A stretch of DNA of 64,000 nt from a virus. Below the pieces are notes generated by a model. The model searched no databases and was not told the DNA's origin. It saw only the letters and a program-made list of their open reading frames with translations. Both the position numbers and the translations under genes were made by a program. Each line of letters starts with the position of its first letter. The first letter of the stretch is position 1. This document shows positions 28,312 to 39,838 of the stretch, in pieces. Location of the stretch: IMG/VR virus record IMGVR_UViG_3300035034_002581. One strand, 5' to 3'.

Positions 28312-28388
28312 TGGAAGACCCCTAGGGATTCGAACCCTAACCTACCTGATTCAAAGTCAAGTGCTCTGCCGATTAAGCTAGAGGTCCA
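28312..28388 (-). tRNA. tRNA-Gln (anticodon TTG)
   Basis: Anticodon stem CTTGA/TCAGG, loop CTTTGAA; T-arm TAGGG-TTCGAAT-CCCTA; CCA encoded. Confidence 0.65.
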
Positions 28389-28392
28389 TTTG

Positions 28393-28668
28393 TTAACTTT
28401 CTTTGTTTTTTGATGCCAATCTTTCAAGTTCGAGTTCAAGGTCAGCATTCATCTGCTTTCGAATCCATCGCATGAATGTAATACCTTTTTCGTTTGCAGA
28501 AAAAAGTGGCGATGATCCTTGAGAATTAGTTGTATCACTAACTGGGATTGGGAACTTCCAGCCATCTTCACATTCATACCAAAGTGTACTATCTCGGAAG
28601 AATGAAAACTTGACATTTCCCTTTACTCTTGTCTTTAGTAGCGACTTATCACTTAATGAATCGGACAT
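28393..28668 (-). CDS. Hypothetical protein
   Basis: 91-aa ORF between tRNAs. Confidence 0.35.
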   Translation of the reverse strand: MSDSLSDKSLLKTRVKGNVKFSFFRDSTLWYECEDGWKFPIPVSDTTNSQGSSPLFSANEKGITFMRWIRKQMNADLELELERLASKNKES

Positions 28669-28681
28669 GTTATCTCCTAGA

Positions 28682-28755
28682 TGGTGCCAGAGATCGGACT
28701 CGAACCGATGTCGATGAGCGTATGAAGCTCACGAACGACCTACGAACAATGGCAT
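28682..28755 (-). tRNA. tRNA-Met-like (anticodon CAT), weak D-arm (possible elongator Met or degenerate copy)
   Basis: Perfect anticodon arm TGAGC-TTCATAC-GCTCA and T-arm ATCGG-TTCGAGT-CCGAT, acceptor 5/7 paired. Confidence 0.4.
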
Positions 28756-28762
28756 GTTAAAA

Positions 28763-28838
28763 TGGCGATCCCCGGCAGATTTGAACTGCGATCTCTTCAT
28801 AGACAGTGAAGTATGTTAGCCATTACACCACGAGGACC
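28763..28838 (-). tRNA. tRNA-Asp (anticodon GTC)
   Basis: Anticodon arm CTTCA-CTGTCTA-TGAAG, T-arm GGCAG-TTCAAAT-CTGCC, CCA encoded. Confidence 0.65.
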
Positions 28839-28844
28839 TTAAAA

Positions 28845-28916
28845 TGGAGCGGAAAACGAGAGTCGAACTCGCCTGCAACAGGGTGGAAACCTAGAGCGTC
28901 GCCATTGACCTTCCGC
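28845..28916 (-). tRNA. tRNA-Gly (anticodon TCC), short
   Basis: Acceptor GCGGAAG/TTTCCGC, anticodon loop TTTCCAC, T-arm GCGAG-TTCGACT-CTCGT. Confidence 0.55.
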
Positions 28917-29300
28917 AAAAGTTGCTGTCTCTCCAGCAGTCACGACTAGATCTGAAAAACGTCCGTCGTTCGAGGTTGTAAGTTACTGATGTGTCGAATT
29001 GTTATCTTTGTGCTCCAGGATTTCCAAACGTGCGAGTCTCATTGTTACTTGAAATGCCAGATTTTCCATTGTCTCTTTCGTACCTTCTAGATTTTGAACC
29101 ACTGGAAGCTCCAAAAAAGCCTTAGCTCCGGTAGTATCATCAATACCTTCATCCTCACACTTCCTTAGATGTAACTTTGCTTTGTTAGCTTCATCACGTA
29201 AAGTACGAAAATGACTACAGATGGAGCTCCATCCCGTATCGAAACGAGCATGCTGCAGTACAAAAGCAGACTAGGTGCCTACATGGAGCATTAGATTGGA

Positions 29301-29363
29301 TTAGGCAGCTGCCAAACCCATAACGATTACAATTACGATGAGTGCGATTGAAATACCAACCAT
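29301..29363 (-). other. Possible 20-aa hydrophobic micropeptide ORF (MVGISIALIVIVIVMGLAAA) with purine-rich RBS
   Basis: ATG preceded by GAGAGAGAAAAA; lies in 475-bp ORF-free gap between tRNAs; speculative. Confidence 0.15.
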
Positions 29364-29392
29364 TTTTCTCTCTCTTTGTTTTTTGTTAAAAG

Positions 29393-29467
29393 TGGCCGGC
29401 TCCGGCGGTTACGATCCGCATACTCCGGGGTGACAACCCGACGTGTTCCCATTACACCACGAAGCCG
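29393..29467 (-). tRNA. tRNA-Asp-like second copy (anticodon GTC), GC-rich, atypical T-loop ATCGTAA
   Basis: Anticodon arm TCGGG-TTGTCAC-CCCGG; acceptor CGGCTTC/GGAGCCG; CCA encoded. Confidence 0.45.
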
Positions 29468-29475
29468 AAAAATTG

Positions 29476-29766
29476 TTACTTAATAGGAAGCTTTCCGAAC
29501 TTTAACACAGCTTTCTCTTTCTTGCTGAGCCATACTGGTCGCCAGCCGCTTTCTGCTGTGAAGTTGTTCGTGGGCTTGTTCATGAACTCTTGAGCTTCTT
29601 TGCAAGTTTCAAACTGTACTATGTTTGGATCTGAAGATGATTTAGCGTAGTCAAAACTTGGTCCCCACGGCTCAGATGCATCGTAATTAGCTCTAAGGAA
29701 CTTCTTGCGCTCTTCATGGTACAACGTCCAAAACTCGATTGAATTTTCAAACTCAAGATCATTCAT
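29476..29766 (-). CDS. Hypothetical protein
   Basis: 96-aa ORF. Confidence 0.35.
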   Translation of the reverse strand: MNDLEFENSIEFWTLYHEERKKFLRANYDASEPWGPSFDYAKSSSDPNIVQFETCKEAQEFMNKPTNNFTAESGWRPVWLSKKEKAVLKFGKLPIK

Positions 29767-29784
29767 TTTCTTTCCTGATTAAAT

Positions 29785-29856
29785 TGGTTGCAGCGGTTGG
29801 AATCGAACCAACACCAGTAGGGTTATGAGCCGTACTTGTGACCTTCACTCACTGCG
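29785..29856 (-). tRNA. Initiator-like tRNA-Met (anticodon CAT) with C1xA72 mismatch and short D-loop
   Basis: Anticodon arm TACGG-CTCATAA-CCCTA (GG/CC pairs next to the loop, as in fMet), unpaired C1/A72 with A73, T-arm GTTGG-TTCGATT-CCAAC; D-arm irregular. Confidence 0.4.
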
Positions 29857-29862
29857 ATAAAA

Positions 29863-29938
29863 TGGTAGGATGCCTCGGCAACGATCCGAGATCTGACGGT
29901 TTAAAAGACCGGCGCTCTGCCAATTGAGCTAACATCCT
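29863..29938 (-). tRNA. tRNA-Lys (anticodon TTT)
   Basis: Acceptor AGGATGT/GCATCCT, D GCTC/GAGC, anticodon loop CTTTTAA, CCA encoded. Confidence 0.6.
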
Positions 29939-29944
29939 ACAAGA

Positions 29945-38372: not shown

Positions 38373-38376
38373 CATA

Positions 38377-38931
38377 TTAGTTTTTGTACACTTTGATTTT
38401 ATCGATTTTGACTTCATCAAAAACAAAGACTTCTTTTTCATCTTTGATTGATGACTCAAGCGTTTCTTTCCATCTTTCAACATAGTGAGATGTTATCTCT
38501 TCAATGTCAAGTAATTTTGACCAATCTATGATTGCATTATCAGGGTCGTAGATTCCCACTACGACGACACCAAATCGGTCTTCAATCAAGTCAGGGTCTG
38601 CGCCCCAACCTTGTTTTGTCGCAAAACGCTTTGCAACTTCTTCGCTTGTAGACCAAGACTTATCAACAGTTTTATCTGTTGTCTCTTGAGTCTGTAGCTT
38701 TACGACGTCTGACTTTGTAAGGTTTCTTATTCCCCTAAAGATCTTTTTTCCTTTGGGTGGTTTTACAAAGTCGTAAACGTCTTCACTTTTTTTGAGATTC
38801 TTCATTTGAGGAATGCTCATTTTTTTAATGTCTGAGAGATGATCAGTGATTTGCTTATAGATACGTGTTATCTCTTTATCACCAGATGATTCTAAAACGT
38901 ATCTTACGTATTCTATTAAGATTCTTTTCAT
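38377..38931 (-). CDS. Hypothetical protein
   Basis: 184-aa ORF. Confidence 0.4.
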   Translation of the reverse strand: MKRILIEYVRYVLESSGDKEITRIYKQITDHLSDIKKMSIPQMKNLKKSEDVYDFVKPPKGKKIFRGIRNLTKSDVVKLQTQETTDKTVDKSWSTSEEVAKRFATKQGWGADPDLIEDRFGVVVVGIYDPDNAIIDWSKLLDIEEITSHYVERWKETLESSIKDEKEVFVFDEVKIDKIKVYKN

Positions 38932-38974
38932 TTACTTCGTAGCCCTTTTCTATATAGGACTCTGTAATCTTAAA

Positions 38975-39061
38975 TGGAGGAAGATGCGAGAATCGAACTC
39001 GCGCACGTTTACCGTGACCATTCCTTAGCAGGGAAGTACATTACCGCTCTGTCAATCTTCC
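38975..39061 (-). tRNA. tRNA-Ser (anticodon GCT), class II
   Basis: Acceptor GGAAGAT/ATCTTCC, anticodon loop codon AGC, variable arm CACG/CGTG, T-arm GCGAG-TTCGATT-CTCGC. Confidence 0.65.
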
Positions 39062-39069
39062 TTTTAAAG

Positions 39070-39145
39070 TGGTGTCCCAGGACAGACTCGAACTGCCATC
39101 GCGAGGATCTTCAATCCTCCGTTCTACCGTTGGAACTACTGGGAC
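39070..39145 (-). tRNA. tRNA-Phe (anticodon GAA)
   Basis: Perfect acceptor GTCCCAG/CTGGGAC, anticodon arm GAGGA-TTGAAGA-TCCTC. Confidence 0.65.
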
Positions 39146-39162
39146 GTAGTATTGTTGTTAAG

Positions 39163-39240
39163 TGGTGGAGAGTATGGGTATCGAACCCACCTCACGAAGA
39201 TTGCAAATCTTCATCGCCTTGCCTTGGTACATGACTCCCC
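39163..39240 (-). tRNA. tRNA-Ala (anticodon TGC)
   Basis: Anticodon arm GAAGA-TTTGCAA-TCTTC perfect. Confidence 0.6.
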
Positions 39241-39294
39241 AATGATTTAAAGAATTTTACTGTTATTCCTTTATTTGTTCAAACTTTGTTAAAA

Positions 39295-39381
39295 TGGTGC
39301 CGAGAGCGGGACTTGAACCCGCACGCCCTTCACGGAGCACAGCGGTCTAAGCGCTGCATGTCTACATTCCATCATCCCGGC
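39295..39381 (-). tRNA. tRNA-Leu (anticodon TAG), class II, second copy
   Basis: Anticodon arm CAGCG-CTTAGAC-CGCTG; long variable arm; T-arm GCGGG-TTCAAGT-CCCGC. Confidence 0.55.
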
Positions 39382-39385
39382 AAAA

Positions 39386-39462
39386 TGGTGGTTACTATCG
39401 GAATTGAACCGATCCCTCTAGTTTTTCAGACTAGCGCTCTGCACCTTGCGAGCTCAGTAACC
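39386..39462 (-). tRNA. tRNA-Phe (anticodon GAA), second copy
   Basis: Perfect acceptor GGTTACT/AGTAACC, anticodon arm CTAGT-CTGAAAA-ACTAG. Confidence 0.55.
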
Positions 39463-39466
39463 AAAA

Positions 39467-39554
39467 TGGCGGAAGCGGAGAGATTCGAACTCTCAAAGGT
39501 TTGACCCTCTACTTGTTTTCAAGACAAGCTCCTCAAGCCGGTCGGATCGCTTCC
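39467..39554 (-). tRNA. tRNA-Ser (anticodon TGA), class II
   Basis: Perfect acceptor GGAAGCG/CGCTTCC, anticodon arm CTTGT-CTTGAAA-ACAAG, long variable arm. Confidence 0.65.
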
Positions 39555-39559
39555 AAAAA

Positions 39560-39646
39560 TGGTGGGTCGTCTAAGAATTGAACTTAGTCGGCACTGCAGG
39601 CTGGGGTTTTACAGACCCCCTCGGGAACCATCCCTCCGTACGACCC
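39560..39646 (-). tRNA. tRNA-Tyr (anticodon GTA), bacterial class II type
   Basis: Perfect acceptor GGGTCGT/ACGACCC, anticodon arm GGGGT-CTGTAAA-ACCCC perfect, long variable arm. Confidence 0.7.
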
Positions 39647-39659
39647 AAACTATATAAAA

Positions 39660-39744
39660 TGGTGCCCATGACAGGACTTGAACCTGTACTCCTTTGCAAG
39701 AACTGTGCACTCAACGCAGCGTGTCTACATTCCACCACACGGGC
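39660..39744 (-). tRNA. tRNA-Leu (anticodon GAG), class II
   Basis: Anticodon loop codon CTC; long variable arm; T-arm ACAGG-TTCAAGT-CCTGT. Confidence 0.55.
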
Positions 39745-39750
39745 ATAAAA

Positions 39751-39838
39751 TGGAGGAAGGTGCGAGAATCGAACTCGCGCTGGTATCAACCAGGCTCCGA
39801 CTTTCCAAGCCGGCACATTACCACTCTGTCAACCTTCC
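39751..39838 (-). tRNA. tRNA-Ser (anticodon GGA), class II
   Basis: Perfect acceptor GGAAGGT/ACCTTCC, anticodon loop codon TCC, variable arm CTGG/CCAG. Confidence 0.55.

Follow-up and report, generated by a model that had tools for sequence, protein, structure and literature searches.

The 64 000-nt stretch of DNA analyzed here (IMG/VR virus record IMGVR_UViG_3300035034_002581; hereafter, the window) carries two dense arrays of transfer RNA (tRNA) genes, and the question raised by this locus is whether these arrays work and, if so, what they would be for. We consider it highly likely that they are functional tRNA clusters in a huge-phage-like accessory region and that, together with outlying tRNAs, a transfer-messenger RNA (tmRNA), a TilS-like lysidine synthetase and an RF1-like release factor, they make up a translation-maintenance island.

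Both clusters lie within positions 28312-39838, on the minus strand like every neighbouring gene. In array A (28312-33195), 26 called genes occupy 4.9 kb, and in array B (37356-39838), 12-13 occupy 2.5 kb; between the arrays are an open reading frame (ORF) of 304 amino acids (aa) and a vault-protein-like gene of 892 aa. A first-pass annotation had reported two tRNA arrays, all on the minus strand, at these positions, and ARAGORN agrees. With default settings ARAGORN finds 36 tRNA genes in 28312-39838, plus two tRNAs and one tmRNA elsewhere in the window. Its pseudogene option adds tRNA-His(GTG) at 30025-30100 and tRNA-Ser(TGA) at 39467-39554, giving 38 tRNAs, which is not far fewer than the 'about 45 genes' annotated initially. 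Overall, 38 genes are well supported and 40 is the maximum, reached by including a marginal Cys-like (37553-37625) and a Gly-like (28845-28916) gene. Four or five tRNA fragments (31016-31053, 30772-30843, 32827-32874 and 33021-33044) stand among the array genes, in line with the interleaved degenerate copies noticed before. Added to the 38-40 genes, they bring the total near the initial figure and account for it. One further sequence is used for comparison throughout: an IMG/VR contig of 110 kb with ~99% nucleotide identity to the window, also carrying a 98%-identical protein (below, the 99% relative).

Array A, in the order of transcription, comprises the following (minus strand, marked (-); Rfam scores in bits):

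33105..33195 (-) tRNA-Lys(UUU), first gene of the array, 91 nt, class-II-like D-arm, long variable arm, A73; ARAGORN, Rfam 27.5 bits
32905..32979 (-) tRNA-Glu(UUC); ARAGORN, Rfam 54.3 bits
32750..32824 (-) tRNA-Asn(GUU), canonical body, G73; ARAGORN, Rfam 54.5 bits
32279..32354 (-) tRNA-Arg(UCU); ARAGORN, Rfam 58.5 bits
31700..31773 (-) tRNA-Val(GAC); ARAGORN, Rfam 63.1 bits
31619..31693 (-) tRNA-Arg(ACG); ARAGORN, Rfam 61.4 bits
31539..31611 (-) tRNA-Pro(UGG), atypical D-arm; ARAGORN, no Rfam match
31457..31532 (-) tRNA-Lys(CUU); ARAGORN, Rfam 36.3 bits
31105..31194 (-) tRNA-Asn(GUU), 90 nt, Ser-like D-arm GGCCGAGCGGUCGAAGGC, long variable arm, G73; ARAGORN, Rfam 53.7 bits
31016..31053 (-) tRNA 3' half (T-arm, acceptor strand, ACCA) in an 89-nt insert missing from the 99% relative
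30930..31010 (-) tRNA-Gly(GCC), 81 nt, 12-nt variable region with a GC-GAAA-GC mini-hairpin; ARAGORN, Rfam 31.7 bits
30848..30925 (-) tRNA-Trp(CCA), G73, unusual D-arm CATGTTCCAAGGCAAGGCGA; ARAGORN, Rfam 17 bits
30772..30843 (-) degenerate, tRNA-like, closed by a perfect 8-bp helix, no CCA; 33 nt longer in the 99% relative
30690..30765 (-) tRNA-Glu(CUC), T-loop GAUCGUA (A54/U58 swap); ARAGORN, no Rfam match
30600..30675 (-) tRNA-Gln(CUG); ARAGORN, Rfam 57.5 bits
30518..30593 (-) tRNA-Gly(UCC); ARAGORN, Rfam 70.0 bits
30367..30442 (-) tRNA-His(GUG), G at -1, A73; ARAGORN, Rfam 57.1 bits
30196..30270 (-) tRNA-Thr(UGU); ARAGORN, Rfam 57.4 bits
30115..30189 (-) tRNA-Glu(UUC), copy 2; ARAGORN, Rfam 51.4 bits
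30025..30100 (-) tRNA-His(GUG), G at -1, C73, pyrimidine 37; two substitutions against the 99% relative, at positions 37-38; ARAGORN pseudogene option, Rfam 43.4 bits
29945..30020 (-) tRNA-Ile(GAU), A54/U58 T-loop; ARAGORN, no Rfam match
29863..29938 (-) tRNA-Lys(UUU) of canonical length, A54/U58 T-loop, positions 36-41 UAAACC; ARAGORN, Rfam 48.4 bits
29785..29856 (-) initiator-like tRNA(CAU), C1xA72 mismatch; ARAGORN, with a 5' end (29861) that is too long; Rfam 29788-29856, 30.6 bits
29393..29467 (-) tRNA-Asp(GUC), A54/U58 T-loop; ARAGORN, Rfam 48.0 bits
28845..28916 (-) Gly(UCC)-like 72-nt element, U73-CCA, reduced D-arm, either functional or a remnant; from sequence, minimum-energy fold cloverleaf-like, no ARAGORN or Rfam call
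28763..28838 (-) tRNA-Asp(GUC), copy 2, pyrimidine 37; ARAGORN, Rfam 50.3 bits
28682..28753 (-) tRNA(CAU), two acceptor-stem mismatches, weak D-arm, possibly decaying; ARAGORN, Rfam 27.7 bits
28312..28387 (-) tRNA-Gln(UUG), last gene of the array; ARAGORN, Rfam 62.4 bits

Array B, and the vault-like gene that follows it, are composed as follows:

39751..39838 (-) tRNA-Ser(GGA), first gene of the array by transcription, CCA followed by TTTT; ARAGORN, Rfam 57.5 bits
39660..39744 (-) tRNA-Leu(GAG); ARAGORN, Rfam 41.0 bits
39560..39646 (-) tRNA-Tyr(GUA), atypical D-arm, variable region unpaired; ARAGORN, no Rfam match at E<=10
39467..39554 (-) tRNA-Ser(UGA); ARAGORN pseudogene option, tRNA-Sec model 37.5 bits, below the threshold of that model
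39386..39462 (-) tRNA-Phe(GAA); ARAGORN, Rfam 56.9 bits
39295..39381 (-) tRNA-Leu(UAG); ARAGORN, Rfam 49.8 bits
39163..39240 (-) tRNA-Ala(UGC), G3:U70, unusual D-arm CATGTACCAAGGCAAGGCGA; ARAGORN, no Rfam tRNA match
39070..39145 (-) tRNA-Phe(GAA), copy 2, 56% identical to copy 1; ARAGORN, Rfam 55.7 bits
38975..39061 (-) tRNA-Ser(GCU); ARAGORN, Rfam 52.0 bits
38377..38931 (-) ORF of 184 aa within the array, no match in family searches
38290..38373 (-) tRNA-Leu(UAG), copy 2; ARAGORN, Rfam 60.6 bits
38203..38279 (-) tRNA-Leu(CAA); ARAGORN, Rfam 41.8 bits
37553..37625 (-) marginal tRNA-Cys-like gene, loop CUGCAAA, U73, CCA, weak anticodon stem; Rfam 23.3 bits (E 0.09), no ARAGORN call
37439..37513 (-) tRNA-Val(UAC); ARAGORN, Rfam 68.6 bits
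37356..37432 (-) tRNA-Val(UAC), copy 2, divergent, last gene of the array; ARAGORN, Rfam 23.0 bits
33631..36309 (-) major-vault-protein-like gene, 892 aa, between the arrays; Pfam MVP_shoulder 1.4e-26, Vault_3 2.2e-10

The statistics on gene ends and Rfam scores refer to a set of 39 scored genes. CCA is encoded in all 39, exactly as had been annotated, and is followed by TTT in 27 (about 2% expected by chance) and by TTTT in 21. The AAAA that had been described in front of each gene is a plus-strand view of these trailers: in the sense of the RNA it is UUUU after CCA, present in 21 of the 39. Spacers measure 1-17 nt in 21 of 38 cases, most commonly 4-7 nt, and are U-rich, while the trailer CCA-YTTTAACA occurs 13 times at sub-cluster ends versus 2.9 expected. 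ARAGORN reports no introns in the array tRNAs, and the degenerate element at 30772-30843 is a copy without CCA; introns and CCA-less copies were among the things the first-pass annotation proposed to look for.

How well do the individual genes conform to known tRNAs? With the Rfam tRNA model (RF00005, gathering threshold 29 bits), 28 of the 39 scored genes reach the threshold, five fall below it, five are unmatched at E<=10 and one matches only the tRNA-Sec model. The low-scoring genes form ARAGORN cloverleafs with a 7-bp acceptor stem, a 5-bp T-stem, a 7-nt anticodon loop and U33, with exceptions from gene to gene. Identity elements are kept: tRNA-Ala has G3:U70, both tRNA-His genes have G at -1 (one of them also C73) and one CAU tRNA has C1xA72; discriminator bases agree with bacterial identity rules for most genes. 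The odd features also recur elsewhere. A D-arm common to tRNA-Trp and tRNA-Ala, CATGTWCCAAGGCAAGGCGA, occurs again in nine further IMG/VR contigs as long as 395 kb, seven of which have an ARAGORN tRNA-Trp call for it, and tRNA-Ala(UGC) has an 82% full-length match to a phage tRNA-Ala (locus L286). In four genes (Lys-UUU at 29863, Ile at 29945, Glu-CUC at 30690 and Asp at 29393) T54:A58 of the T-loop is replaced by A54:U58 (GGAUCGUWAC), and tRNAs with this T-loop have low Rfam scores. The corresponding motif (GATCRT near the 3' end) is present in at most 123 of 3648 distinct collected phage tRNAs, an upper bound since some matches lie outside the T-loop, and is spread over many isoacceptors. 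Because identity elements are kept and the odd features recur, the sub-threshold tRNAs look atypical but not obviously dead, and judging from their sequences they are probably functional. Where phage tRNAs have recurrent non-canonical arms, standard covariance models call too few of them, and 'pseudogene' calls in phage arrays are therefore unreliable.

Comparison of gene copies and of the two closely related genomes indicates how the arrays change. Copies with the same anticodon are 53-71% identical in pairwise comparison and hence are old or independently acquired isodecoders, not recent tandem duplicates. Of the 'repeated duplication and turnover' proposed initially, recent duplication is thus not borne out, whereas turnover is, by indels of 89, 84 and 33 nt against the 99% relative, with ends in T-loop or CCA motifs. 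The 89-nt remnant is extra in the window and is flanked by CC(G/A)-CCATTTT repeats; the 33 nt are missing from the window, between two GGTTCGA motifs; and an 84-nt deletion in the window, between two GGTTCAAATCC T-loops, joined an amber-suppressor tRNA(CUA) to its neighbour. In the 99% relative (locus L004) the suppressor tRNA(CUA) is intact (14939-15015, ARAGORN), and the segment 14939-15090 holds this tRNA and then an intact tRNA with a 10-nt anticodon loop. Since indel ends coincide with T-loop motifs, the conserved T-loop is, on this sequence comparison, a recombination point for gene gain and loss, a process that the two 99%-identical genomes make visible. Compared with the relative, 0.39% of tRNA positions and 0.81% of the remaining array positions are substituted. 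A search of the phage collection for intermediate relatives, with which array order might be compared across divergent genomes, gave single-tRNA matches only.

The decoding capacity of the set was assessed on 67 non-overlapping minus-strand ORFs of the window, on the assumption that for Ala, Pro and Thr a wobble U decodes the whole four-codon box. The called anticodons can read ~96% of the window's own codon usage, so the near-complete decoding set recognized at first pass is real. Codons without a confident reader are TTA, CGG, ATA and TGY (38.6 per 1000 in sum); ATA could be readable if a CAU tRNA adjacent to TilS is tRNA-Ile2, and TGY could be if the Cys-like gene is functional. Each of the three stop codons occurs, TAG in 11 of the 67 ORFs. 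The anticodons listed in the first-pass annotation agree with ARAGORN, except that Arg-CCT lies outside the array range (15741-15815) and Cys is marginal. Accordingly, 19 amino acids rather than all 20 are covered with confidence, Cys depending on the 23.3-bit candidate. Two of the first-pass epithets went too far. Self-sufficiency is not supported, as no aminoacyl-tRNA synthetase was seen in the window, and such sets are not rare: there are 56 tRNAs, serving all 20 amino acids, in phage XacN1 (PMC5852040), and up to 67 tRNAs plus tmRNA in metagenomic huge phages (PMC7162821).

Outside the arrays, the window codes for further tRNAs and for proteins of translation and RNA repair:

58796..59824 (-) ATP-dependent RNA ligase; Pfam RNA_ligase, PHROG 548 (9.4e-60)
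46674..48485 (-) HAD (polynucleotide-phosphatase-like) domain fused to a CCA-adding tRNA nucleotidyltransferase; Pfam HAD_SAK_1 and PolyA_pol, PHROG 2244 and 415, NCBIfam
41984..43225 (-) RtcB RNA ligase, 2.1 kb upstream of array B; Pfam RtcB 2.4e-129, PHROG 1075
26367..27045 (-) RF1-like release factor without domain 1, in two frames; Pfam, joined protein RF1 185 bits versus RF2 121
25321..25396 (-) third UUU-anticodon tRNA, G37, non-canonical T-loop GGUGAAAGCAC, its CCA being ACA in the 99% relative; Rfam 44.8 bits, no ARAGORN call
25238..25315 (-) chimeric pseudo-tRNA, 5' part of the amber-suppressor tRNA(CUA) and 3' part of the next tRNA, joined in the T-loop; Rfam partial, 29.4 bits
15741..15815 (-) tRNA-Arg(CCU); ARAGORN, Rfam 68.6 bits
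15643..15735 (-) 93-nt tRNA-like gene, normal acceptor, D and T arms, CCA end; Rfam 42.7 bits, ARAGORN pseudogene option
14449..15096 (-) TilS-like lysidine synthetase, catalytic domain only; NCBIfam TIGR02432 129.5 bits (cut-off 93.6), Pfam ATP_bind_3
14359..14435 (-) tRNA(CAU) adjoining TilS; ARAGORN, Rfam 57.1 bits
9071..9438 (-) tmRNA, tag peptide ANNNSHFQTALAA; ARAGORN, Rfam 119.8 bits
6986..8413 (-) PIN-domain nuclease fused to a PhoH ATPase; PHROG 2765

The tRNA(CAU) beside TilS may be a tRNA-Ile2, in which case it would read AUA; the adjacency itself is plain to see. In the 93-nt tRNA-like gene, 32 nt replace the 15-nt core of the anticodon arm, which could be an expanded anticodon arm or a short insert. 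The two frames of the RF1-like gene join at GGAGG-TCA-TTT-TAG-C (26931-26945), a site identical in the 99% relative. Its order of Shine-Dalgarno-like element, 3-nt spacer, slippery codon, stop and C is that of the +1 programmed frameshift of prfB, with TAG where prfB has TGA; the joined protein has PPN at the position of the RF1 PxT motif. VapC-type PIN toxins are tRNA cutters, and by analogy the PIN-PhoH protein could have a part in host RNA degradation. A DnaJ gene is also among the annotated neighbours.

From these components the following scheme may be proposed. The arrays would be read through as long precursors with flanking and interleaved small ORFs, and host RNase P would cut each 5' end, separating the genes. 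Most array genes have U at -1; the G at -1 of the two tRNA-His genes is needed for His identity. The 4-7-nt U-rich trailers left behind would be trimmed by 3' exonucleases to the encoded CCA, so that CCA addition would not be needed for maturation. The mature tRNAs would sustain phage translation when host tRNAs are scarce, degraded in the takeover or cleaved by defences, RtcB, the RNA ligase and the phosphatase-CCA-adding enzyme would repair cleaved or trimmed tRNAs, and TilS would convert the CAU tRNA to an AUA reader.

What kind of element carries the arrays? We read the window, by its gene content, as an accessory region of a large phage known only from metagenomes. Contigs ENA ERZ27315555 k141_234856, Logan SRR6185438 and JGI 3300028410 each encode window proteins exactly. 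Throughout ~77 kb of DNA all genes have the same orientation, many of them being small and without annotation; numerous window proteins have PHROG matches. In the phage collection there is no DNA similarity to cultured or deposited phages beyond single tRNAs. Homologues of the vault-like protein (38-43% identical) occur in that collection only in LR756500, LR756501 and LR756503, huge phages of 462-735 kb; beyond these, the search returned one near-identical IMG/VR contig and nothing in JGI metagenomes. The vault-like genes of LR756500 and LR756501 have no tRNAs within 20 kb, whereas here arrays flank the gene, which as far as shown is not part of the tRNA function. The top matches of a literature search that covered the major vault protein included no paper in which the term stands.

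Two members of array A combine a class-II-like body with a class I anticodon. These are tRNA-Lys(UUU) at 33105-33195 and tRNA-Asn(GUU) at 31105-31194: both have a long variable arm with an anticodon (UUU, GUU) that is not one of Leu, Ser or Tyr, and both have the 7/5 acceptor/T-stem layout, not 8/4 or 9/3. The variable region of the former is C-GUGU-GAAA-GCAC-CAUC, and the gene has a 91% match over 68 nt to locus L111; the latter has an 83% match over 84 nt to locus L266. Pattern scans of IMG/VR revealed at least 92 distinct long tRNA-Lys(UUU) and at least 64 distinct long tRNA-Asn(GUU), many of them on contigs of 100-600 kb. Once the variable region is placed by anticodon-loop and T-loop anchors, a fixed register (1 nt, n bp, 4-nt loop, n bp, 4-nt tail) pairs 81% of positions in Lys, 85% in Asn and 91% in Thr tRNAs, compared with 27-59% in shifted registers. 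The loops are GNRA in 61-71%, the closing pairs vary (CG, AU, GC, UA) and most 3' tails read CAUC, CAAC or CACC, which sets them apart from the Ser, Leu and Tyr arms in these phages. Conserved as a hairpin, the arm consists of 1 nt, 3-5 bp, a GNRA loop and a CAYC tail. When 15 long-arm tRNA-Lys sequences were aligned with MAFFT and folded with RNAalifold, the D and variable arms were misaligned, and the acceptor, anticodon and T stems alone came out.

Large phages, some of them in culture, often have long-arm class I tRNAs: XacN1 has a tRNA-Lys(CUU) of 87 nt and Ruegeria phage vB_RpoS-V10 one of 88 nt, each annotated as plain tRNA-Lys, and a related gene of Cellulophaga phage phi4:1 is annotated 'tRNA-OTHER'. 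Unrelated phage contigs (L070, L077, L092/L094 and L085) carry 87-89-nt tRNA-Thr(UGU) and 88-nt tRNA-Asp with long variable arms. Of the first ~120 matches listed in each case, 61 (Thr), 21 (Asp) and 10 (Glu) are true long-arm tRNAs, and long-arm identities also include Trp. Untargeted sampling, when pooled, found long arms in 29% of Ile-UAU, 20% of Thr-UGU, 17% of Asn, 13% each of Met and Cys and 11% of Glu tRNAs, as against 5% of Lys-UUU and 0/131 of Ala tRNAs. The trait is therefore broad and at most enriched among readers of A-starting codons. Searches of the open-access literature turned up no account of phage tRNAs for Lys, Asn or Thr with a long arm.

A possible role of the arm is suggested by the PARIS nuclease AriB, which targets tRNAs Lys-UUU, Thr-UGU and Asn-GUU, cutting between positions 40 and 41 and contacting the D-loop (PMC12409363). 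All three anticodons are represented in the window, and the variable arm emerges between the cut site and the D-loop, hence the idea that it blocks such nucleases. A long arm specific to PARIS targets was considered and rejected: long-arm Asp and Glu tRNAs exist, if less often than Thr ones, and the untargeted fractions are broad. Our tentative proposal, more doubtful than not, is that anticodon-reading synthetases still charge these tRNAs and that the arm is a structural route to nuclease resistance, unlike the point substitutions of phage T5.

Several observations weigh against reading the arrays as functional clusters of a large phage. As many as 11 of the 39 scored genes miss the Rfam tRNA threshold, and some look impaired: the Met gene at 28682 has two acceptor mismatches, while His at 30025 and Asp at 28763 have a pyrimidine at 37. 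In a scan of 27500-40500, counts of promoter- and terminator-like sites are not above those in shuffles. No structural phage gene (capsid, terminase, tail) is present in the window or 6-7 kb past its ends, and the best matches of PrkA homologues (55-64% identity), scattered over Verrucomicrobiota, Bdellovibrionota and Firmicutes, are uninformative about the host. Sub-threshold scores, damaged copies, fragments and the suppressor tRNA lost by T-loop-to-T-loop deletion versus the 99% relative would all be expected if the arrays were largely decaying, with many genes being pseudogenes carried by recombination. We find this improbable. That the odd features turn up again in unrelated phages argues for selection; every gene has its identity elements and CCA intact; tRNAs have half the substitution density of the spacers; and A54/U58 is a swap of two mutually pairing bases. 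The want of a virion gene in the ~77 kb within reach makes the viral assignment indirect and leaves a minority alternative, namely a large plasmid or other mobile element with a 'tRNA array unit' as in mycobacteria; comparable sets of translation genes have been described on large plasmids (PMC7162821, PMC12803027). A phage origin is nonetheless the more probable, the chance of a plasmid being small in our view: the near-identical contig sits in IMG/VR, the vault-like homologues in the phage collection are confined to curated huge phage genomes, PHROG matches are many, and the layout is unidirectional with dense small ORFs.

Since the host cannot be inferred, codon compensation and counter-defence are inseparable as drivers, but they do not fit the data equally. 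Compensation, in which the tRNAs supply codons poorly decoded by a perhaps GC-richer host, is the classical explanation of phage tRNAs (reviewed in PMC10264068). It agrees with an AT-leaning element (~40% GC) that prefers A/T-ending codons and with multi-copy anticodons reading slightly more used codons (38 versus 30 per 1000). As the main driver, it is conceivable but rather unlikely: the set is nearly complete instead of serving a few codons, tRNA copy number does not correlate significantly with the element's codon usage (rho 0.26, p 0.17), TTA is fairly common (13 per 1000) yet lacks a reader, and the linked repair enzymes point to tRNA damage, not scarcity. The near-complete set, three UUU tRNAs, ligases, phosphatase-CCA enzyme and tmRNA would fit a role in coping with a depleted or damaged pool of host tRNAs better than a rare-codon top-up. 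The damage could come from host defences or from the phage's own takeover, for which a PIN-PhoH nuclease is encoded, and a response to tRNA-depleting defences would suit the linked tRNA-repair genes. As to the long-arm tRNAs, they might mis-decode, being Ser-, Tyr- or Leu-type bodies with mutated anticodons through which Asn and Lys codons are read as Ser, Tyr or Leu. Their D-arms resemble those of bacterial Ser and Tyr tRNAs, and G73 suits Ser while A73 suits Leu or Tyr. SerRS and LeuRS ignore the anticodon (PMC7609411, PMC11028032), and allo-tRNAs with mismatched anticodons exist (PMC5389517). The discriminator base, however, tracks the anticodon as in short-arm tRNAs. Among the matches listed, it is A in 76, U in 16 and G in none of the long-arm Lys-UUU tRNAs (short-arm: A 50, U 4, G 1), G in 58 and U in 7 of long-arm Asn-GUU (short-arm: G 51, U 5, A 1), and U in 11 and A in 6 of long-arm Thr-UGU (short-arm: U 33, A 9). 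In addition, the acceptor stem of the Lys copy (GGGTCGC...A73) resembles that of E. coli tRNA-Lys (sequence in PMC11464382), and both the variable-arm design and the 7/5 stem layout speak against a Ser, Leu or Tyr origin. Mis-decoding thus appears very unlikely, and the pattern argues for real Lys, Asn and Thr acceptors.

The preferred reading, functional clusters within a phage translation-maintenance island, has clear precedents, and a tRNA-damage framework has been published for jumbo/huge phages and T5 (PMC7162821, PMC7824862, PMC10264068, PMC11464382, PMC12409363, PMC11555353). The arrays belong to the well-known tRNA clusters of jumbo/huge phages, and the initial description of them was largely correct. 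Those phages likewise have dozens of co-oriented tRNAs for nearly all amino acids in an accessory region, with tmRNA, tRNA ligases and a CCA-adding enzyme alongside (PMC7824862), although nucleotide similarity to the present element is limited to single tRNAs. In XacN1, the long-arm tRNA-Lys also stands beside a normal one, and a Band 7 protein is next to its Lys/Tyr tRNAs. Mycobacteria, the plasmids they carry and mycobacteriophages have tRNA array units (PMC12803027; anticodon-loop analysis in PMC10264068) that are similarly dense and cover 19-20 amino acids; the isodecoders in them differ from host copies in the D, anticodon and variable arms, and an anti-defence role has been proposed. These units come from another lineage with another GC content and do not share the features found here, namely linked RtcB, RNA ligase, CCA enzyme, TilS and RF1-like genes and long-arm class I tRNAs.

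Phage T5 encodes copies of nuclease-cut tRNAs: variants of its tRNA-Lys(UUU), Thr(UGU) and Asn(GUU) escape AriB (PMC11464382, PMC12409363), and its tRNA-Tyr acts against a retron (PMC11555353). The resistant T5 tRNA-Lys has U36AAACC41, the same six bases as the normal-length tRNA-Lys(UUU) of the window (PMC12409363). The window has tRNAs with the same three anticodons, among them three different UUU-anticodon tRNAs; the T5 variants are point substitutions in a normal class I body, whereas two copies here have a remodelled long-arm body. Allo-tRNAs (PMC5389517) also have a long variable arm with non-Ser/Leu/Tyr anticodons, but with 8/4 or 9/3 stems and Ser identity (long arm plus G73), in contrast to the 7/5 stems, A73 in the Lys copy and anticodon-tracking discriminator seen here. 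Phage T4 combines a tRNA cluster with Pnk/Rnl1 repair of PrrC-cut tRNA-Lys (PMC12409363, PMC7824862), and here too tRNAs are accompanied by RNA end-healing and sealing enzymes. The T4 cluster has eight tRNAs, as against ~40 here, all with CCA, plus RtcB-type and ATP-dependent ligases. Some T4 tRNAs lack an encoded CCA.

The arrays thus add one more near-complete phage tRNA set, distinctive in being linked to a complete set of tRNA-repair and translation genes. The long-arm tRNAs could reveal a way in which phages protect tRNAs from host nucleases, or how synthetases tolerate an extra arm, and could serve as natural scaffolds for orthogonal tRNAs; their importance would be greater if the class proves undescribed and acts against host nucleases.

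Two further gene groups belong to the same stretch. A complete PrkA / DUF444 (YeaH-like) / SpoVR trio, normally a bacterial stress or sporulation module, lies at 15921-20434 on the minus strand. Positions 1-6000 of the window and the DNA beyond (L697/L698) hold a run of glycosyltransferase, sugar-nucleotide epimerase/dehydrogenase and phosphomannomutase genes, which points to a polysaccharide or glycan-modification module of the same element.

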